A stretch of 64,000 nt of DNA. It comes from a virus. Position numbers and translations under genes: made by a program. Below the pieces are notes generated by a model that did not search any database, was not told the DNA's origin, and saw nothing but the letters and a program-made list of their open reading frames with translations. Positions 3,440-30,175 of this stretch are shown here, piece by piece; the first letter of the stretch is position 1; each line of letters opens with the position of its first letter. The stretch is from positions 1-64,000 of IMG/VR virus record IMGVR_UViG_3300021963_000027, one strand, 5' to 3'.

Positions 3440-3831
3440 TGAAAAAAAATCAATTAATCGAACAATTGCAAAAAATCAAAGGCAATCCCGAAATCAAAAT
3501 GTGGAACGGGTATGTCGATGATTGGATGGATATTAAGCTTTGCGAACAAGAGTTTGTCAAAGAATCGGAGGACTTTATTCGTTGGGGTGTCGAGATGGCT
3601 TGGAAGGAGCGTAACCAAAAATGGGAAATCCCTGAAGAGGCACAGATTCAAATCGAAGAGGTTATAAAAGAAATGTTAAAAAATAGACAGTGGGAATTGC
3701 CGAATCAATATTTGCAAACAGAAGAAGATGAGAAGCGTTGGTATGGTAAAAATAAAAAGAAGTTTGTTTTAATCAACGGAAAAATTCGCGGCAAATCAAT
3801 TGAAGATCGACTTGGAAAAGTCAGCTACTAA
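3439..3831 (+). CDS. hypothetical protein
   Basis: TAATG-coupled ORF. Confidence 0.8.
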   Translation: MKKNQLIEQLQKIKGNPEIKMWNGYVDDWMDIKLCEQEFVKESEDFIRWGVEMAWKERNQKWEIPEEAQIQIEEVIKEMLKNRQWELPNQYLQTEEDEKRWYGKNKKKFVLINGKIRGKSIEDRLGKVSY

Positions 3832-3832
3832 T

Positions 3833-4924
3833 ATGAAACTACCAAATAAAGAAGAATTCAATTTCAAAGATTGCGTCATCGCTGGTGACGAATGTTGGCT
3901 CATTACACCAAAAGATATGAGCGTCAAATGGAACGACGAAAATACTCGTTTCCGTTCTTGTATTGTGCGTAAGTCTGACAATTTCGTAATTAGCCAAGGA
4001 TTCCGAAAATTTACAAATTTCGGAGAGCAACCAGCATTTGAACCATGGAAAGATTGTTGGAAATTTGAAGCGAGACACAAGTTGGATGGTAGTCTTTTAA
4101 TCATTTCTCGATACAAAGGTCAGTGGATTACCAGAACCCGTGGCACTGTAGATGCTCGCCAACTTCCTAATGGTCATGAGATTGACCTGTTAATTGAAAA
4201 ATATAAAAAATTTTTTGAAGATAGTGATGCTATTGATAGCATATCAGCATTAGAGCAATCTTGGTTATTTGAATGGACTACTCCGTCCAATATTATTGTA
4301 TTGAAAGAGTCCGATGAGTATGAATTAACTTTAATCGGTATTGTTTCCAATGAGGATGCAGCATACTATAGTCAGGCATATGTAGATATATGTGCGATTC
4401 AATACGATTTTAAACGTCCAGAGATGTATCATTACAATTCTGTTTCAGAGTGCATTGCTGATGTTACTGCTTGGAAAGGTAAAGAGGGCGTTGTCATTTA
4501 CTCTCCCAATGGTCAAACTCTCAAGAAAATCAAAGCAAGTGAATACTGTGAACTTCATAAAATTGCTACTGGAATTAAAAATGTAAAAAATGTTCTGGAT
4601 GTATTTATGGAGTCCCCAAAATTCACCAAATATGAAGATTTCTATAGCCATATTGAAAAGTTACTCGACTTTGAGATCGCGGAAAAATGCAAACCATTTA
4701 TCCAAGAAATCACTGATGCCTATGCTAAGTTCGTAAAGGGTGTGGATAATATGAATGAGCGTATTCCTTTTATTCAGAATTACGAAACTCGCAAAGAACA
4801 AGCAATGGCGATTCAACAAGAGTTCCGTGATTGGAAGACTGCTATTGCATTTCTTCTACTTGACAATCGTAAGGTTGATGATAAAGTTGTGCGCAAAGCA
4901 ATGGAGAAAATCTTAGAACTATGA
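3833..4924 (+). CDS. RNA ligase 1 (T4 Rnl1-like)
   Basis: Motif I HKLDGS, WLFEW, KEGVV, LKKIK nucleotidyltransferase motifs. Confidence 0.85.
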   Translation: MKLPNKEEFNFKDCVIAGDECWLITPKDMSVKWNDENTRFRSCIVRKSDNFVISQGFRKFTNFGEQPAFEPWKDCWKFEARHKLDGSLLIISRYKGQWITRTRGTVDARQLPNGHEIDLLIEKYKKFFEDSDAIDSISALEQSWLFEWTTPSNIIVLKESDEYELTLIGIVSNEDAAYYSQAYVDICAIQYDFKRPEMYHYNSVSECIADVTAWKGKEGVVIYSPNGQTLKKIKASEYCELHKIATGIKNVKNVLDVFMESPKFTKYEDFYSHIEKLLDFEIAEKCKPFIQEITDAYAKFVKGVDNMNERIPFIQNYETRKEQAMAIQQEFRDWKTAIAFLLLDNRKVDDKVVRKAMEKILEL

Positions 4925-6464: not shown

Positions 6465-6707
6465 ATGAATAAAAATTTCGTATTGGCAACGAGTGCAACT
6501 TGCGGTCCATGTCACTTGCTTAAAGCAAGACTGGAGAAATTGGAATTAACTGTGGAAATTAAAAATTATAATGATCCACAAAACATTGAATGGTTTAAAA
6601 AACATGGTATTCGTAATGTGCCATGTTTGGTAGTGGAAGATGATACTACCTTCGAAATCATTCAAGGTATCGATGATATTATTGAAAAAATAAAACAAGG
6701 TGAATAA
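6465..6707 (+). CDS. glutaredoxin/thioredoxin-like protein
   Basis: TCGPC and NVP motifs. Confidence 0.85.
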   Translation: MNKNFVLATSATCGPCHLLKARLEKLELTVEIKNYNDPQNIEWFKKHGIRNVPCLVVEDDTTFEIIQGIDDIIEKIKQGE

Positions 6708-7350
6708 AATTATTAAACATAAATGGGAAGATAGAAATAAAATCTTTTTCTCAAGTGATTGGCATAATTACCATGATCCGAAGTGGGATGTTCCCATCTG
6801 GAAGATGCGTGGTTATTCGTCCCCTCAAGAATCTTTGGATGATGTAGTGAACAAAATCAATGCGAGAGTTAAAGAAGATGATTTTTTATATTTTCTTGGA
6901 GATGGATTTTTGAATGCTACAGATGAACAAGTTCTGGAATGGTTCTCACGAATCAATTGTAAGAATATTAATTACATCTATGGGAATCATGAATCAAACA
7001 TTTTCCGTATCTATCGGCGAACAGTATTGGAAAAATACGGTGATCCTGATATCGAAGTGTATCCCATGCGATTTAACAATGTAGTGTTCTTGGGTAATTA
7101 CCAAGAACTCCAAGTTGGTAAGAAAAGTGTTATCCTACAACATTTTTCGATTAAGACATGGCATAACAATTCTCGTGGGAGTATCCATCTTCATGGTCAT
7201 AGCCATAATACTGATAAAACAAGAAATCCAGAGTATCCAATGGGTAAATGCCTAGACTGCTCATGGGACTATAAGAAAGATGTGTGGTCTTGGGAAGAAA
7301 TTGAAGATATCATGTCAACGAAAGACGTTTTGATAACTGACCACCATTAA
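6700..7350 (+). CDS. calcineurin-like metallophosphoesterase
   Basis: SDWH, LGD, GNHE, HGHSH motifs. Confidence 0.9.
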   Translation: MNKIIKHKWEDRNKIFFSSDWHNYHDPKWDVPIWKMRGYSSPQESLDDVVNKINARVKEDDFLYFLGDGFLNATDEQVLEWFSRINCKNINYIYGNHESNIFRIYRRTVLEKYGDPDIEVYPMRFNNVVFLGNYQELQVGKKSVILQHFSIKTWHNNSRGSIHLHGHSHNTDKTRNPEYPMGKCLDCSWDYKKDVWSWEEIEDIMSTKDVLITDHH

Positions 7351-9368: not shown

Positions 9369-9581
9369 ATGGAAGAAGAAATTAGCGAAGAAATTGTATT
9401 TAAAACATATAATGATAACAATCTCATTCATTTTGAGGTAACACTTGCCAAAGAAGATAAGTGGTTTGCACTCATCTCTGGATTACCAAACAATGGCGAA
9501 ATTAAAGATATTGAGACATTGAAGAGAATTATTAAGTGTTTGAAAAAAGCTAAAAAACGCTGGAAAGAATTAAAAAACTAG
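9369..9581 (+). CDS. hypothetical protein
   Basis: Ends LKN* in motif. Confidence 0.7.
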   Translation: MEEEISEEIVFKTYNDNNLIHFEVTLAKEDKWFALISGLPNNGEIKDIETLKRIIKCLKKAKKRWKELKN

Positions 9582-23281: not shown

Positions 23282-24661
23282 ATGATTAGTATCTCTAAAA
23301 ATGCAGACCCGAATTACCTTGCTACGGTAATTGAATGCCCTGAATTGAAGAATCATCCAAATGCTGACCGTCTGGAGATTACTAATGTGTTTGGTGGTGA
23401 TGTGATCGTTGCCAAAGGACAGTATCAAAAAGGCGAATTGCTATGCTATTTTCCAGTGGAGTCTTGTATCTCACAGAAGTTCTTGGCATGGGCTAATCTG
23501 TTAGATAAAGCAGAATCGAATGCTGATGGTAAGACCAAGGGCTTTTTCTCATCGAAAAATGGTCGTGTTCGTGCTATTAAATTAAGAGAGATTCCAAGTC
23601 AAGGATTCCTTTTCAAAGTCTCTAAGCTTGCTGAATACTACGGTGTTAAAGAATCTGTGTTCAAATTGGGAGAGTCATTTGATACTATCAATGATGATCT
23701 ACTGGTGAAGAAATATGTATCAGGAGAACGCAAGAGTGGAAATCAGAATGAGTCTAAGAAGCGCATTCCAAAATGGATTGAAAATACTGTTCGTATCTTC
23801 CCTCTTCCCATTCGTAAGCGTCTATACACTGGTATCAATTACTTCTACGATAAGAACAAGCAAGGTATCGGTAGCTTGATTGTGGATGGGCATTGGGCAT
23901 TCCATTATAAAACAGAAGGGGCTGGTAGAAATATACACATTTTATCACCAGAGGATACAATAATTATTACAGAAAAATTACACGGTGCTAATGGGGTATA
24001 TGGTAACATTCTTTGTAAAAAACCTTTTAATATTTTTCGATACTTTGGAAAAAAAATCGGTTTTAGTGTTGAAGAGACGGAACATAAGTTGGTTTACAGT
24101 AGCAGAAACATTCTAAAAAATAGGAGAGATGGTAAATATACTGATGATGTGTGGGGCAATGTAGCACAAGATATTGATGGTAAATTACCAAAGGATATTA
24201 TTCTATATGGAGAATTAATCGGTTGGTCATCTGATAATAAATGTATTCAGAAGAATTATGACTACTCACTGCCTAATGGTAAGGTCGGGTTTAGAGTATT
24301 TCGTGGAGTTCGAAATACTCAAGAAGGTAAACAAATTGAACTATCTTGGGATGAGCTTGTGGAAATTTGTGAATATTCAAATTTGGAAATGGTTCCCATT
24401 CACTATAAAGGCTTGGTAAAAGATTTGTTTGATATTCATATTGATGATACATGGCGCGATAAATTTCTTTCAAATCTGGCGAAAAAATTCTTCAAAAATA
24501 AATGCCATTATTGTAAAAATTCTGTTGTAAATGAGGGGGTCGTGTTGAGAATCGAATCTTCCGAGCGCAAAACAGTATTAAAATATAAAAATCCGAGCTT
24601 TCTAGTACAAGAAAGTAGTGCCAGAGATATCAACGAAGAAAATATTGATGAAGAAAATTAA
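23282..24661 (+). CDS. RNA ligase (Rnl2/DRB0094-like) with N-terminal OB-like domain
   Basis: HPNADRLEI, ITEKLHG, YGEL, EGVVLR, LKYK. Confidence 0.85.
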   Translation: MISISKNADPNYLATVIECPELKNHPNADRLEITNVFGGDVIVAKGQYQKGELLCYFPVESCISQKFLAWANLLDKAESNADGKTKGFFSSKNGRVRAIKLREIPSQGFLFKVSKLAEYYGVKESVFKLGESFDTINDDLLVKKYVSGERKSGNQNESKKRIPKWIENTVRIFPLPIRKRLYTGINYFYDKNKQGIGSLIVDGHWAFHYKTEGAGRNIHILSPEDTIIITEKLHGANGVYGNILCKKPFNIFRYFGKKIGFSVEETEHKLVYSSRNILKNRRDGKYTDDVWGNVAQDIDGKLPKDIILYGELIGWSSDNKCIQKNYDYSLPNGKVGFRVFRGVRNTQEGKQIELSWDELVEICEYSNLEMVPIHYKGLVKDLFDIHIDDTWRDKFLSNLAKKFFKNKCHYCKNSVVNEGVVLRIESSERKTVLKYKNPSFLVQESSARDINEENIDEEN

Positions 24662-25428
24662 TCAACATATTTCATCATATAAGTCTCGTTTCGTTGTTTA
24701 CCAGTGCATAGGTTTCTTATACTTGTTCTACTGAGTCCAAGTGTTTTAGCGGCATAAGATACTGATTCATAAACTGTCTCGATATTAGAAACTTTATCGA
24801 GACAGTTTATCGCTCTTCTTGTGTCGGTAGAAATCGGTTCTATGTGATCTCCCATATAAGAAGATTTGAATACGTAACCACCGCATTGTTTGGTTTTATT
24901 CGATAAAACATTACAAATACCGCTATGTGAGTATAAATTTAATTGTCTAGCCGCTTCTGTATAGCCTATAAAAGAACCAACATACCCACCAGTAATGTGA
25001 TTATATACATAAACTTGTTTGCTAAGAATACATTTTTCACCTGTTTTACCCTTTGTATGCGAATTTTTACTCATTTTAATTTTAGTTTCCTCACTGTGTC
25101 GTAATCCAACGCAACCTCTACCCTTAGAACAGATATTATATCCGTTCGGTGTTAAACTATTATATTTGATTATCATTTGTTCTTCCAAATTCCATAATTG
25201 TTCTTTGTTTGCATTTGGGAAATATTCAACATGTATTTCGAAATTATCACGACCATATTTTCTTATGGCGTTGTGGATCAAGCTACGTTTTTCCGCACCG
25301 ACTCTGCTTCTATGCTCACATATTCGTTTATGGATATTTATAGTTTCTCCGATATAACATTTACCATTTATTAGATTTTTAATAATGTAAATCCCCGCAT
25401 TGTTTTCAAATTTATCGTTTAATTTCAT
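24658..25428 (-). CDS. GIY-YIG homing endonuclease with NUMOD-type repeats
   Basis: GIYIIKNLINGKCYIGET; HSEETKIKMS. Confidence 0.9.
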   Translation of the reverse strand: MKLNDKFENNAGIYIIKNLINGKCYIGETINIHKRICEHRSRVGAEKRSLIHNAIRKYGRDNFEIHVEYFPNANKEQLWNLEEQMIIKYNSLTPNGYNICSKGRGCVGLRHSEETKIKMSKNSHTKGKTGEKCILSKQVYVYNHITGGYVGSFIGYTEAARQLNLYSHSGICNVLSNKTKQCGGYVFKSSYMGDHIEPISTDTRRAINCLDKVSNIETVYESVSYAAKTLGLSRTSIRNLCTGKQRNETYMMKYVD

Positions 25429-25559
25429 TTTAAATATTCATCTAACATTCTTTTGATCAGTTCTGACATCGTGATACCCATTAAATCAGCTTTGGTTCTC
25501 AGCATTTTTTTAATGTCTGGTAGTAAATACACCTCTATTTTTTCTTTATTTTTTCTCAT
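25425..25559 (-). CDS. 44-aa ribbon-helix-helix-like protein
   Basis: MRKNKEKIEVYLLPDIKKMLRTKADLMGITMSELIKRMLDEYLK; TAAATA 7 nt upstream; ATGA-coupled to GIY-YIG. Confidence 0.7.
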   Translation of the reverse strand: MRKNKEKIEVYLLPDIKKMLRTKADLMGITMSELIKRMLDEYLK

Positions 25560-25641
25560 ACCTTATTATTTAGTGTTTTTATCATGTTTTTTTCATTACA
25601 GTATTGACTAAATTAAAAACTAAGATAATATAATCTTAATT

Positions 25642-26211
25642 ATGAAATTACTAATCACTCGTCATGGTCAGTCAGAGGGTAATATCAACAAGTCAGTGTA
25701 TTTCAAAATGCCTGATTGGTCTGTTCCTCTAACAGAAAAAGGTAAAGAGCAAGCAAATAAAGTTGGGGAAGAGATTCGTGCAGAGCTTCTCTCATCAAAT
25801 GAATTTTTATTGATTCATAGTCCTTATGTGCGAGCAAAAGAGACAATGCAAATTATCAATACACACTTTCCTCTCTATACTCCATTTTATAAAGAAGAGC
25901 ATGTCTTGATTCGCGAACGTGAATGGGGAAATCTTAGAGAAGAATACGAAACATATAAAACCAGAGAAGAACGTGAACACCTGTTTGATTTCTATCGTCG
26001 TCCTAATGGTGGAGAATCATTCGCTGATTGCTATCAAAGAGCATTCATCTTTCTGAATTGGTTGAAGACACAAGTGGCTGATACAGCTATTATCGTATCT
26101 CATGGAGAATTTATCAAAACGATGTTGATGATCATTGACAACGTGAGTGTGGAAGACTTCGATAAGATTCCCAATGTTAAGAATTGTAAATTGATTATCC
26201 GCGAAATTTAA
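25642..26211 (+). CDS. histidine phosphatase (phosphoglycerate mutase family)
   Basis: RHGQS, SPYVRA, GGES, VSHG. Confidence 0.9.
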   Translation: MKLLITRHGQSEGNINKSVYFKMPDWSVPLTEKGKEQANKVGEEIRAELLSSNEFLLIHSPYVRAKETMQIINTHFPLYTPFYKEEHVLIREREWGNLREEYETYKTREEREHLFDFYRRPNGGESFADCYQRAFIFLNWLKTQVADTAIIVSHGEFIKTMLMIIDNVSVEDFDKIPNVKNCKLIIREI

Positions 26212-26233
26212 AAAACTAGAATATACTGAACAC

Positions 26234-26629
26234 ATGACAAACGAATTGGAAACGAAATTGATTGGATGGCTTGAAACATCCGCACAGGCTATTGGAGACT
26301 TTGCTTCGAAAGAAGTGCCTCCTTTCATTCACGAATACCTTCAATGGAAATTCTTGGAGTGTTTTTATGCACCTTGTATGGCACTATTAGGATTTGTCGT
26401 ATTTGGACTTATTATGCGTAAATGTTGGAAAAAATATAAAACTGATAATGATTCTGTTCTAACAGAATTATATTTTGGTGGCACAATTTTTTCTGCTTTT
26501 TCTTTATTTATTATATTCCTTATCTTTATGATTAGCTCACTAAAAAACATACCCACAGCAATACAAATCAAAGTAGCACCAAAAGTATATCTTATGGAGA
26601 AAGCAACAGAATTTATTAAAAGTAAATAA
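26234..26629 (+). CDS. membrane protein
   Basis: Two TM segments; leaderless start. Confidence 0.8.
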   Translation: MTNELETKLIGWLETSAQAIGDFASKEVPPFIHEYLQWKFLECFYAPCMALLGFVVFGLIMRKCWKKYKTDNDSVLTELYFGGTIFSAFSLFIIFLIFMISSLKNIPTAIQIKVAPKVYLMEKATEFIKSK

Positions 26630-26630
26630 T

Positions 26631-26828
26631 ATGGTGACAAAATTAGAAAAACAATACGATGCGGGAGAAAATCTATCTTCCATTCAGAAAATTGATGAAA
26701 AGCTTTCTATTCTTCGTGAATCTTGGCAAGATGCTGGTGAGGATAAAAAAAATAAATGGATGAAAATGATTAACGAACAACTTGATCAACGCTTGACTTT
26801 GATGAGTATTCGTGATAACATGGGGTGA
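26631..26828 (+). CDS. hypothetical protein
   Basis: ORF. Confidence 0.75.
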   Translation: MVTKLEKQYDAGENLSSIQKIDEKLSILRESWQDAGEDKKNKWMKMINEQLDQRLTLMSIRDNMG

Positions 26829-26864
26829 TGGCAGAGTGGTAATGGTCTGGTCTTGAAAACCAGA
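26822..26864 (+). pseudogene. truncated tRNA-Ser(TGA) 5' part
   Basis: GGGGTGATGGCAGAGTGGTAA..CTGGT-CTTGAAA-ACCAG; no T-arm or acceptor 3' strand. Confidence 0.6.
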
Positions 26865-26926
26865 GACAACCCTGACAGGCATCTTAAAAAACTAGAATAC
26901 AATAACAACACAACAAAATAATATAT

Positions 26927-27097
26927 ATGGCTAATCGTAATACTAAATCGGCTCGCAGAGCGGGATTCGCAAGTAAAAAAGACCAGAACAACAACGGCAC
27001 TCGTATTTTCAAGGGCAAAGCTTGTGACACTGGATGGGATGCTCCTGAGAGTAAACACAAGAAGCGCAAGGTATATCAGCGCAACAATTCCAATTAA
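26927..27097 (+). CDS. 56-aa basic protein
   Basis: After M-promoter, A-rich leader. Confidence 0.65.
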   Translation: MANRNTKSARRAGFASKKDQNNNGTRIFKGKACDTGWDAPESKHKKRKVYQRNNSN

Positions 27098-27103
27098 CGA
27101 TTT

Positions 27104-27287
27104 TTCGCTTCGGCAGTATCAATAAATGACCAGAACCTCCCTCTACTATTCACTTAGCATGGAGACTGGTGGGATCGAGAAATAGAGCCTTCGGGTGCGC
27201 GGATAAAGTCAGTAATGACAGGTAGTAATTCTATCCTCCCTAAAACTCGGATACTGAAAAGGTAGGCGCAGACCGTTCCGAAGCGAA
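27104..27287 (+). ncRNA. 184-nt structured RNA of unknown class
   Basis: 10-bp closing helix, 7-bp second helix, UUCG and GUAA tetraloops. Confidence 0.65.
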
Positions 27288-27307
27288 TTAATTTTAATCA
27301 ATAAATT

Positions 27308-27508
27308 ATGAATATCATTGTAAAAAACGATAAAGGACATAGCTACTCCGACAGAGTTGAAGCTGTCGCTAGAAAAGGCGACTTCATTATTTTCGACGAA
27401 CAAGTTAAAGAAGTAAAAAGTGTTGTTTGGTATCCTGATTACGATTACATCAAAACTCATTACACATCAAACATAGGAAATATCACAGCATTCATTTGGG
27501 TAGAATAA
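27308..27508 (+). CDS. hypothetical protein
   Basis: ORF. Confidence 0.75.
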   Translation: MNIIVKNDKGHSYSDRVEAVARKGDFIIFDEQVKEVKSVVWYPDYDYIKTHYTSNIGNITAFIWVE

Positions 27509-27519
27509 TATTAAAAATT

Positions 27520-27825
27520 ATGTTTATAGAAATTGGAAAATATTTAGCAGAACAAAACATCACAGTAACACTTCATTTTAATTCAGAGACGAAACAACAC
27601 TATTGGGATTTAAACACCCAAGCAAAGTCTGATCTCCATCTATATGAAGATTTAACTTTGAAAGGTCGTTATGGTTATACTTCTAAGCTGGAAAACGAAA
27701 CTCTTGAAGAAAACATCCGAAGTCTTTGTTGGGAATTTAAAGACTGTCTTCATGGAAGAGATTACGGCTCATGTGCTTGGTTTGAGCTTTGTGAGAAAAA
27801 ACAATTTGACTATTTAAAAAACTAG
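27520..27825 (+). CDS. hypothetical protein
   Basis: Ends LKN*. Confidence 0.75.
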   Translation: MFIEIGKYLAEQNITVTLHFNSETKQHYWDLNTQAKSDLHLYEDLTLKGRYGYTSKLENETLEENIRSLCWEFKDCLHGRDYGSCAWFELCEKKQFDYLKN

Positions 27826-27839
27826 AATACAATTTCATC

Positions 27840-28214
27840 ATGAACGAACAACAAAAAGAAAACCTTAAATTGGGAATCAAAGCTTTACGCGAAAATCCCT
27901 TAAAAGCAAAAGATCAAATGCGTGACTCATCTGGAGGACGATGCTGTCTCTGTGTCTTGTCAGAAGTGGCAGAAGATATTCAGGGTGTTCCTCGCGGAAC
28001 TTTCACGTATTGCGAACCTGATGGGGAAGATGCTATAGCACCAACAAGCGATCTTGCCGAAATCTTCGGATTGCGTAATGTATCTATTTCACAGACGTTC
28101 AACTTTATGATTAATCATAAGATGGCATCTATCTGGAATGATGGTTTCGGTTATACATCTGAATTATCTCATGCAGAAATTGCTGATATGATTGAAAAAG
28201 AATTTCTAAGCTAA
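27840..28214 (+). CDS. hypothetical protein
   Basis: Leaderless; CCLC motif. Confidence 0.8.
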   Translation: MNEQQKENLKLGIKALRENPLKAKDQMRDSSGGRCCLCVLSEVAEDIQGVPRGTFTYCEPDGEDAIAPTSDLAEIFGLRNVSISQTFNFMINHKMASIWNDGFGYTSELSHAEIADMIEKEFLS

Positions 28215-28223
28215 AACAACATC

Positions 28224-28499
28224 ATGGAAACAGTTGAAACATACACACCAGTTCTACGCGAATACAAATTTGATTACTTCTCTGCTGAAATGGTGCTTGA
28301 TAGCTCTGGTGAATGGGTGCGCTATGAAGACTACAAAGAACTCTCAGAATATGCTGACAAGCTCGCAGAAGGGTTGCCATGCTTGCCAAAGGACATTGAA
28401 GTTCTCCGTGATGCTAACGCCACACTTGCTCAACGAGTCTTTGAACTTGAACAACAATTACATTATGACAAAGACTTATCCATTCTGGACAGTATTTAA
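28224..28499 (+). CDS. hypothetical protein
   Basis: ORF. Confidence 0.75.
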   Translation: METVETYTPVLREYKFDYFSAEMVLDSSGEWVRYEDYKELSEYADKLAEGLPCLPKDIEVLRDANATLAQRVFELEQQLHYDKDLSILDSI

Positions 28500-28722
28500 T
28501 CCACGCCGTATAATGCTCGGTAGTTGTGAGCATAAGATTAAAGTAACTCATCTTGGCAAAGGTATCTACGGGTGCCGAGTATTTACTAATGGTTTACTCA
28601 ATGCTGAGAATCGCTGCAAAGGTAAAGAGAACATTCGCTTTGCTTGTCGTGATCTATTGCGCTGGGAGTCTAAGTTAGGCAACATCAGCGATTTCTCTCA
28701 AGCATCTCGCTGTCGCCAATAA
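28465..28722 (+). CDS. hypothetical protein
   Basis: ORF. Confidence 0.6.
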   Translation: MTKTYPFWTVFNPRRIMLGSCEHKIKVTHLGKGIYGCRVFTNGLLNAENRCKGKENIRFACRDLLRWESKLGNISDFSQASRCRQ

Positions 28723-28743
28723 CGAACTCTGATACAATTAGGT

Positions 28744-28938
28744 ATGACCATTTCCAAACTTATTACTGAATTACAAAAGGCTCAAGCTGAACACGGAGAC
28801 GTTCCAGTTATGCTCGATGGCATGGAGTATCGAGAGGAGATTTACGACATTCGACTCTGCTATCCAACTAAGCCAGGGTATATTTGGTATGAAGAAGACA
28901 AGACTCAGCCAGTTAATGCAATCGTTCTCAATTCTTAA
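28744..28938 (+). CDS. hypothetical protein
   Basis: Flanked by 23-bp direct repeat of variant promoter. Confidence 0.8.
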   Translation: MTISKLITELQKAQAEHGDVPVMLDGMEYREEIYDIRLCYPTKPGYIWYEEDKTQPVNAIVLNS

Positions 28939-28981
28939 TAACGAACTCTGATATAATTAAAAACTAGAATACAATTGAGCC

Positions 28982-29284
28982 ATGTTTAAATTACCTTATA
29001 TTGGAGTAGGACTTATTTTGTTTCTAATCGGAATAGCTATGAATGCAGGATTATTTTCCTTTGGATTGGCTTTAATTGGTTGCTACATTCTTTCAAGAAT
29101 CATGGCACAAGATTTTGGTGTCCCTGCCTTTTTCGTTATTGGTATTTTTATTTTTGGATTAGCTTTTTTCGTAGCATCCCCTTTACTACAAGAAATTGGT
29201 GTTGATGTGGGAACAGCAAATATCGTCCGTATAGTAACAACATTGGCATCTGGTGTATTAACATGGTTATCAGTCCCGAAATAA
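28982..29284 (+). CDS. multi-pass membrane protein
   Basis: Hydrophobic; leaderless. Confidence 0.8.
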   Translation: MFKLPYIGVGLILFLIGIAMNAGLFSFGLALIGCYILSRIMAQDFGVPAFFVIGIFIFGLAFFVASPLLQEIGVDVGTANIVRIVTTLASGVLTWLSVPK

Positions 29285-29285
29285 T

Positions 29286-29558
29286 ATGAACAGAGAAGAA
29301 TCTCCTAAAACAAGCCAATTCGCATTGAATCTCTACGCTGCTGGATGCGTGGATGAAGCGATGGAATTCGAAAAGATGGAAAAAGAAATCCGCGAACTAA
29401 AAGAAAAATTTTCTTCTGGCAAGCCTGTTTGCCCTTTCTGTCTAACGGAAATGAAAACAATCGAATACCATGGATATTATGAATCGTTCCCAATGTGGGA
29501 ATGCAGATGTGAAAAATTCGAAAAACCAGATTACACAGCACATGGTGCTTACGCTTAA
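29286..29558 (+). CDS. hypothetical protein with CxxC motifs
   Basis: CPFC..CRC. Confidence 0.75.
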   Translation: MNREESPKTSQFALNLYAAGCVDEAMEFEKMEKEIRELKEKFSSGKPVCPFCLTEMKTIEYHGYYESFPMWECRCEKFEKPDYTAHGAYA

Positions 29559-29580
29559 AAAACTAGAATACAATCAACAC

Positions 29581-29898
29581 ATGACAATCGCTCAACAATT
29601 AAAGATCAAAGAATTCCCATTCAGCATCAAAGATTCCAATGGTAATGAGATTTACCACGAATATTCCGATGGATTTTGGATTAAACGTGAATACGATTCC
29701 AATGGTAATCGCAATCGCTTTGAAACGTCCACTGGTTACTGGTCAATTTGCGAGTATGACGAAGAAAATAGAGAGATTTACTGGGAGAACTCCGATGGAG
29801 AAATCCTCGACAATCGCCCCAAGACAGATGTTCAAAAAGCTATTGATCTTCTGACAAAAGAAGGATTGTTGGTGGATGGTAAGATTTTAAAAAACTAA
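29581..29898 (+). CDS. 21-aa-repeat family paralog A (3 units)
   Basis: MTIAQQLKIKEFPF..KREYDSNG..DNRPKT..ILKN. Confidence 0.9.
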   Translation: MTIAQQLKIKEFPFSIKDSNGNEIYHEYSDGFWIKREYDSNGNRNRFETSTGYWSICEYDEENREIYWENSDGEILDNRPKTDVQKAIDLLTKEGLLVDGKILKN

Positions 29899-29917
29899 GA
29901 TACAATCATAACATAAT

Positions 29918-30175
29918 ATGAAAACAATCGCACAACAACTTAACGTAAAGGAATTTCCATTCATTATCAAAGATTCTAATGGTAAAGTGATTTACTCCGA
30001 GAACTACAAAGGATATTGGATAAAGCGCGAGTGGGATTCCAAAGGTAATGTGATTTACTTCGAGAACTCCTATGGACAAATCGTTGATAATCGTCCTAAA
30101 ACAGAAATCCAAAAGGCTATTGATCTTCTCACAAAAGAAGGATTGATCGTAGATGGTAAGATTTTAAAAAACTAG
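29918..30175 (+). CDS. 21-aa-repeat family paralog B (2 units)
   Basis: Same family. Confidence 0.9.
   Translation: MKTIAQQLNVKEFPFIIKDSNGKVIYSENYKGYWIKREWDSKGNVIYFENSYGQIVDNRPKTEIQKAIDLLTKEGLIVDGKILKN

Follow-up and report, generated by a model that had tools for sequence, protein, structure and literature searches.

A conserved multibranched RNA gene of T4-like freshwater phages and the possible circularization of its product

Introduction

To our knowledge, the circular RNAs of bacteria and of their DNA viruses are so far mainly by-products of self-splicing introns, and the roles of phage RNA ligases beyond tRNA repair are largely unknown. In T4-type phages, group I introns and permuted intron-exon circles are the known route to circular RNA. 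Phage T4 also encodes two small stable RNAs, rnaC (species 1) and rnaD (species 2), at positions 70908-71171 of its genome (NC_000866). Archaeal noncoding RNAs, for example the circular C/D-box sRNAs of Thermococcus, are circularized by the ATP-dependent RNA ligase Rnl3 (PMC9014305; for MthRnl, PMC2577357). A literature search, outside which many subscription journals lay, found no description of a circular noncoding RNA encoded by a DNA phage.

The RNA gene described here lies in the first 64 kb (64,000 nucleotides, called the window below) of the 184-kb IMG/VR record IMGVR_UViG_3300021963_000027, which is 89% complete. A preliminary description of the window, made from its letters, had pointed to a multibranched structured RNA and suggested a novel phage noncoding RNA or a ribozyme. 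The best explanation of the data, with a probability of roughly 0.6, is that the locus is a gene for a trans-acting, multibranched noncoding RNA of about 191 nt, which is cut from an mRNA and the ends of which are sealed by a ligase.

The phage and the locus

The record contains a T4-type major capsid gene (PF07068, E 1e-85), and the phage that hosts the RNA gene is T4-like and of freshwater origin. The carriers of the gene are a clade of T4-like freshwater and estuarine phages with one copy per genome. In the window the RNA element is placed between a 56-aa basic ORF (ORF56) and a 66-aa ORF (27308-27508, +), and a search of the genome with the model R1 shows that it is single-copy (Table 1). 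The stretch had been described as free of open reading frames, and two mechanical ORFs (27024-27125, +; 27209-27460, -) merely clip its edges. It had also been called GC-rich amid AT-rich genes. The enrichment is mild: GC is 0.45 compared with 0.25-0.40 nearby, and it is 0.47 in the upstream ORF.

Table 1. Positions of the RNA gene, its helices and associated features in the window
Feature	Positions	Strand	Description
Second RNA ligase	3800-4924	+	T4 gp63/Rnl1-like by PHROG (phrog_562, E 1e-34)
ATP-dependent RNA ligase	23282-24661	+	459 aa; PF09414 RNA_ligase and PF21189 N-terminal OB fold; phrog_968
Promoter-like motif	26888-26903	+	AAAACTAGAATACAAT; precedes ORF56; putative promoter
ORF56	26927-27097	+	Small basic protein, 56 aa; stop codon a few bases before the RNA
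RNA gene	27100-27295	+	Unit of 191 nt, e.g. 27101-27291; model R1, 241.5 bits
P1, 5' strand	27104-27113	+	Pairs with 27278-27287; 10 pairs, 2 changed on both sides
P2, 5' strand	27114-27120	+	Pairs with 27250-27256; 7 pairs, 2 compensatory
P3 arm	27129-27170	+	ACCAG/CTGGT, CTCC/GGAG, tip C..TA/TAG (27146-48/27155-57) with conserved loop
P4 arm	27171-27240	+	GGGA/TCCC, GA/TC, TRGA/TCYA, GCCT/AGGY, then fork
P2, 3' strand	27250-27256	+	Partner of 27114-27120
P5 mini-hairpin	27261-27274	+	GGT/ACC (27261-63/27272-74), between P2 and P1 in the 3' strand
P1, 3' strand	27278-27287	+	Followed by the U-rich tail 27288-27295

The tRNA genes beside the RNA cassette are decaying. A remnant at 26822-26874 (+) of the window scores 19.6 bits with the Rfam tRNA family, which is below threshold; it has kept the acceptor, D and anticodon arms and has no T arm. 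At the same site one relative (L011) has an intact tRNA-Ser and tRNA-Cys directly upstream, another (L005) keeps another fragment, and a third (L017) has four tRNAs within 1 kb of the RNA. On the other side of the RNA, directly downstream of it in L070, a relative of the divergent lineage, lies a gene (6538-7185, -) whose 215-aa product has the motifs GDSHFGHG, GNHN and GHSHG, by which it looks like a calcineurin-type metallophosphoesterase.

Structure of the RNA

The folding energy of the single sequence is unremarkable. On the + strand z is -1.42 and 16 of 200 shuffled sequences fold equally well, and on the minus strand z is -1.93, values that do not separate the RNA from chance. The structure is accepted as real because of the comparison across variants, not because of its energy. 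The comparison is based on 23 distinct variants from related phage and metagenome DNA contigs (alignment A2, mean column identity 89%), from which a consensus structure was derived by RNAalifold and pair counting. It has 53 pairs in 11 helices, and 98.9% of the cells are paired. A search for covariation in homologues had been proposed in the preliminary description, and covariation is present: both-sided, compensatory changes occur in 12 of the 53 pairs, a number that none of 500 shuffles reached, and control structures slid by 1-3 columns gave 0-2.

On the + strand, P1 and P2 close a junction that bears two long arms, P3 and P4, and the small P5. Several of these helices had been proposed from the single sequence and are used in the minimum free energy fold as well: the outer helix P1, TTCGCTTCGG opposite CCGAAGCGAA; P2, CAGTATC opposite GATACTG; the ACCAG/CTGGT (27129-33/27166-70) and CTCC/GGAG (27137-40/27161-64) helices of P3; and the GTCA-GTAA-TGAC hairpin of P4. 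The proposed GCC-TTCG-GGT tetraloop hairpin is not supported, its place in the 23-sequence consensus being taken by GCCT/AGGY (27187-90/27220-23) and TCG/CGG (27191-93/27200-02). The latter helix has one compensatory change, from C-G to U-A in a single relative (L060).

The compensatory changes are spread over the whole structure. Those of P1 fall at alignment columns 10/198 and 12/196. At the P2 pair 27116/27254, 16 variants have G-U and 7 have G-C. Read on the opposite strand, the frequent G-U pairs would become A-C, and the RNA is therefore on the + strand. Four pairs of the P3 arm have compensatory changes, among them A-U to G-C in 6 variants and CTCC/GGAG to CCCG/CGGG in 3. The P4 arm is built of the helices 27171-78/27234-40, 27183-86/27230-33 and 27187-90/27220-23, and forks into TCG/CGG and the GNRA-loop hairpin at 27208-27219. 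At its pair 27184/27232, 17 variants have G-C and 5 have A-U, and each of the two tip hairpins has one compensatory change. P5, with one compensatory change in its three pairs, is the weakest helix. In L070, the variant that diverges most, pairs of both P1 and P2 are flipped, which indicates that the terminal helices, too, are kept as RNA pairs.

Relatives and conservation

Relatives were sought in IMG/VR with ORF56 and with conserved words of the RNA, and in JGI metagenomes with a core pattern. The first IMG/VR pattern, GGAGCCTTCGGGTGCG, gave 39 loci, about half of which (20) were unrelated chance matches. The RNA element was present in every true relative found, once per contig. The INPHARED/GenBank phage collection gave no DNA match to the RNA in either near or distant mode. 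No match to the core pattern was found in the GTDB genomes, which therefore give no clue to a host or a prophage.

The RNA is better conserved than the protein gene next to it. Over the same contig pairs, mean pairwise nucleotide identity is 88.9% for the RNA and 74.5% for the DNA of ORF56, and the RNA is the better conserved of the two in 158 of 171 pairs. Purifying selection on the RNA is thus stronger than on the neighbouring protein gene. The conservation of the unpaired nucleotides is extreme, loops and junctions being near-invariant.

ORF56 immediately precedes the RNA in every relative whose flank is long enough, except in the L070/L074 lineage, where a different, 60-aa ORF does so. The persistence of the RNA behind another ORF indicates that it is an independent unit. 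Its other neighbours, upstream and downstream, vary among the relatives. The ORF and the RNA do not always share their degree of identity either. At L062 the RNA is 94% identical to that of the window and the DNA of ORF56 just 62%; for L010 the values are 88% and 78%. Such mismatches, seen for example at L062, L073 and L004, suggest recombination between the ORF and the RNA.

ORF56 belongs to no Pfam or PHROG family, and the ESM Atlas gave nothing useful for it. Its AlphaFold model is mostly disordered (pLDDT 55). The protein could be a partner of the RNA, though it is dispensable in one lineage.

A comparison with Rfam had been suggested as a check, and its outcome supports the novelty of the RNA. 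With Rfam 15 at gathering thresholds over the whole window no match fell inside 27100-27295, and at E <= 10 over 26700-27500 there was again no match inside the RNA. The families covered include 6S (RF00013), YrlA (RF02553), group I introns (RF00028), hammerhead, twister, hatchet, pistol, HDV, phi29 pRNA, tmRNA, tRNA and others.

Accumulation and head-to-tail junction in environmental RNA

Contigs of two freshwater metatranscriptomes with different study codes (X16 and X17) were mapped on positions 25000-30000 of the window. The two studies are of the same year and the same habitat and may be one campaign. Two further RNA runs (X18 and X20), the kind of which was guessed and which gave partial linear pieces, were excluded from the evidence. 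In both X16 and X17 the RNA element is covered and the surrounding 5 kb is essentially empty. Since the flanking genes have essentially no cover, the signal cannot come from carried-over phage DNA, and the RNA persists far longer than its precursor. In environmental RNA the element accumulates far above its flanks, and its 3' end is joined to its 5' end.

The topology was read from assembled contigs (k = 31), not from raw reads. The X16 contig is 221 nt long, has a depth of 42.7 and 3 differences, and covers 27100-27295. Before 27100 it reads AAGCGAATTA (= 27281-90) and behind 27295 it reads TCGCTTCGGCAGTAT (= 27105-19); an identical 30-mer stands at both ends, which gives a cycle of 221-30 = 191 nt. 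The X17 contig (217 nt, depth 7) is a different variant, in which the joint runs from 27284 through AT to 27101 and so goes back 184 positions. With its 30-nt terminal repeat it makes a 187-nt cycle. A contig whose first 30 letters recur as its last 30 is, in a k = 31 graph, the signature of an unbranched cycle, and an unbranched cycle at depth 7 means that the junction words are not rare relative to the body.

The junction sequence, GCGAATTAA/TTTTTCGC, lies in the U-rich tails directly outside P1. Because ATTTT is common to both flanks, the junction can be placed only between 27290/27100 and 27295/27105. It was absent from the DNA contigs, all 23 DNA variants being colinear, and a search of IMG/VR with the junction pattern gave unrelated hairpins only. 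Folding of the RNA as a circle retains all helices. As read from the contigs, the RNA is probably a circle or a head-to-tail multimer.

The same contigs could, however, derive from a small RNA that is linear and very stable and has its defined ends near 27100-27105 and near 27290-27295; the junctions would then be template switches of the reverse transcriptase. The switches would occur end-to-end or at microhomology, and the graph would close because a linear RNA has no words beyond its ends. The ATTTT direct repeat on the two flanks is microhomology of the kind that allows such a switch, the 3' strand of P1 with the U tract resembles the end of a terminator in several variants, and the topology data consist of contigs only. 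However, the same closure is seen in two runs with different sequence variants; at the mean depth of 7 in X17 a rare artefact should drop below the word threshold of the assembler; and the flank words of a precursor, which would branch the graph, are absent, whereas the junction words are present. A linear RNA is considered unlikely, and the circle or multimer is preferred.

Whatever its topology, the element is almost certainly a real gene for a structured, conserved and novel noncoding RNA. This was the proposal of the preliminary description, and it has held: the element is conserved, covaries on the + strand, matches no Rfam family and stands far above its flanks in RNA libraries. An absence of both expression and covariation had been named as what would speak against it, and both are seen.

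Transcription and proposed biogenesis

The motif AAAACTAGAATACAAT, 16 nt long, has 63 matches in the window with at most 2 mismatches, all on the + strand, compared with 0.19 expected. It stands in front of nearly every small + strand gene (for example at 9574, 14532, 23174, 26888, 27818 and 61424) and is built like a promoter type specific to the phage: it ends in a -10-like TACAAT, and a conserved CTAGA block replaces the standard -35. Upstream of the RNA the copy at 26888 stands alone, and the next copy is at 27818. Between ORF56 and the RNA there is no AAAACTAGAATACAAT motif and no promoter motif of the RNA's own, and no simple terminator was found downstream of the RNA. ORF56 and the RNA are therefore presumably co-transcribed, and the RNA, having neither a promoter of its own nor a simple terminator, would have to be released from a longer transcript.

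The following pathway is proposed as the most economical one. Transcription would start at the promoter-type motif in front of ORF56 and include the RNA as part of the ORF56 mRNA. Endonucleolytic cuts, or one such cut together with termination, would then free the RNA within the unpaired U-rich stretches that border P1 on the outside, and would leave 5'-P and 3'-OH ends. These ends would be kept next to each other by P1 and sealed by an ATP-dependent RNA ligase of the phage. The tails would then become a U-rich loop of 6-8 nt that caps P1, and the product would be an exonuclease-resistant circle.

Two ligases of the phage are candidates for the last step. The PF09414 enzyme is a candidate sealing enzyme, with the gp63-like one as an alternative; neither matched a PDB sequence. 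Most relatives keep the PF09414 ligase gene in synteny, 1.5-3.5 kb ahead of the RNA, the usual order being ligase, histidine phosphatase, small ORFs, ORF56 and RNA. In L070/L074 the ligase gene that precedes the RNA, at a distance of about 1.8-2.4 kb, is instead a homologue of the Rnl1-like one. In both lineages one of the two ligase genes is thus about 2-3.5 kb or less from the RNA, but this is gene proximity among relatives and so does not count as independent evidence. Neither RtcB nor a Pnk-type kinase was found in the genome, which fits 5'-P/3'-OH ends. Sealing by a phage ligase is tentatively proposed, with the odds slightly against it.

The histidine phosphatase gene (PF00300; 25642-26211, +) is syntenic between the ligase and the RNA in most relatives, and a part of its product in healing the RNA ends is conceivable. 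A GIY-YIG/NUMOD homing-endonuclease gene (24658-25428, -) lies between the ligase and the phosphatase genes. It is absent in L011, L050, L031 and L007, in which the spacing between ligase and phosphatase is shorter, and it therefore looks like a mobile insertion.

A circle could also arise without a ligase, if the RNA were a new self-processing ribozyme that excises itself from the mRNA and joins its own ends or, as a variant of this, a viroid-like RNA copied as multimers. The extreme conservation of the unpaired nucleotides, the GNRA loop with the multi-way junction, and the head-to-tail junctions would suit such an RNA, and phages commonly carry self-cleaving ribozymes (Lee et al., bioRxiv 10.1101/2022.07.19.500677). 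However, hammerhead, twister, hatchet, pistol, HDV, hairpin and group I families gave no match to the linear locus even at E <= 10, and neither strand of the head-to-tail dimer contains a hammerhead core (CUGANGA). Moreover, a single genomic copy needs two cleavage sites, and the flanks, which vary from variant to variant, have only about 5 nt in common. Self-processing is thus distinctly improbable, and excision followed by sealing with a ligase is the preferred route.

The position of the RNA, almost always directly behind ORF56 and with no promoter of its own, would suit a cis-acting element in the 3'-UTR of the ORF56 mRNA, acting as a stabilizer, a terminator or a translational regulator. 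This is highly improbable, as the RNA contigs contain the element without ORF56, its conservation is far above that of ORF56, a different ORF precedes it in L070/L074, and a 190-nt fold of five helices far exceeds what a terminator needs. An element acting at the DNA level (a miniature transposon with inverted ends, a recombination site or an origin) would account for the 10-bp terminal inverted repeat and the short ATTTT repeat on both sides, but is hardly credible for an element that is single-copy in the genome, the many G-U pairs of which would turn into A-C mismatches in DNA hairpins or on the opposite strand, the internal helices of which carry compensatory changes, and which occurs in RNA libraries without its flanks.

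With these alternatives weighed, the trans-acting, ligase-sealed RNA remains the best explanation. The complete account, in which a dsDNA phage makes a dedicated circular noncoding RNA by cutting it out of an early-type mRNA and closing it with an RNA ligase that the phage itself encodes, is put forward as a possibility that stands just short of even chances.

Possible function and significance

The near-invariant loops and junctions, the GNRA loop and the multi-way junction speak for a three-dimensional fold that is well defined and has a specific partner. This pattern of conservation fits a specific three-dimensional partner better than simple antisense pairing; a search for antisense targets in the phage genome gave chance-level matches of 10-12 nt only. 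The working guess, a rather doubtful one, is that the RNA may be a long-lived, nuclease-resistant scaffold or decoy that binds an RNA-binding factor of the host or of the phage.

If the proposal is true, a DNA phage with a conserved, dedicated and gene-encoded circular noncoding RNA would add a new class to the known phage RNAs, and the enigmatic phage RNA ligases would have a natural substrate outside repair. Circular RNAs would then be among the tools of phage-host interplay, where one might serve, for instance, as a nuclease-proof scaffold or decoy that counters an RNA-targeting factor of the host. Furthermore, DNA phages may be the source of some of the circular contigs that are read as 'viroid-like' in metatranscriptomes, these being phage transcripts. 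The very high conservation of the RNA, for its part, points to a specific molecular partner.

Comparison with known systems

Two kinds of phage or bacterial element were considered and rejected. A group I intron or permuted intron-exon arrangement does not apply: the RNA has no match to RF00028, no gene is interrupted, and the upstream flank is a conserved protein gene while the downstream flank is variable. Unlike the circles of group I introns, moreover, the putative circle of the phage RNA has no G at its 3' end. A retron msr-msd or DRT template was set aside too, since the record has no reverse transcriptase (PF00078, 0 matches), neither unit length, 191 or 187 nt, is divisible by 3, and the units contain stop codons.

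The YrlA and Y RNAs (RF02553), the partners of Ro60, are similar in that a long terminal stem of the 5' and 3' ends closes a branched module, and the setting is comparable in that the present phage is rich in RNA-repair enzymes. Assignment to the Y RNAs was rejected for want of an Rfam match, of a TROVE/Ro60 gene and of a tRNA-like module. TROVE/Ro60 (PF05731) had 0 matches in the 184-kb record (89% complete), and controls matched in 2 genomes. ARAGORN, run on the monomer and on the head-to-tail dimer, found no tRNA-like module and no permuted tRNA or tmRNA.

The preliminary description had brought up the stable RNAs of T4. Of these, rnaC and rnaD are likewise small stable RNAs of a T4-type phage without a promoter of their own. 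They adjoin tRNA genes; in the present clade tRNAs lie directly upstream of the RNA in L011 and within 1 kb of it in L017, and the window has just the remnant, with a protein gene intervening. The comparison holds for position at most and does not extend to sequence or structure: the best hit of the model R1 over T4 68000-75000, with filters off, was 7.4 bits, which is noise, and over rnaC it scored 2.5 bits. Unlike rnaC and rnaD, the phage RNA is longer, lies behind a protein gene and has a head-to-tail junction.

With the viroid-like RNAs (bioRxiv 10.1101/2022.07.19.500677) the element shares a branched structure, a length of about 190 nt and a circular contig from metatranscriptomes. Unlike a viroid-like cccRNA or a retrozyme, it has no detected self-cleaving ribozyme, it is encoded by a single colinear gene in the DNA of a dsDNA phage (23 DNA variants), and its RNA variants track the phage DNA variants.

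The archaeal RNAs circularized by Rnl3 differ in not being phage-borne and in their C/D-box families, to none of which the inside of the phage RNA gave a match. The ligases differ as well, those of the phage belonging to other families (PF09414 with an N-terminal OB fold, and a gp63-like PHROG), and the dependence on a ligase is in the phage a proposal. In both systems, however, a terminal helix brings the 5' and 3' ends of a small structured noncoding RNA close to each other, these ends are joined head to tail, and an ATP-dependent RNA ligase is encoded in the genome. By this analogy the phage RNA would work most like the noncoding RNAs that Rnl3 circularizes in archaea (PMC9014305).
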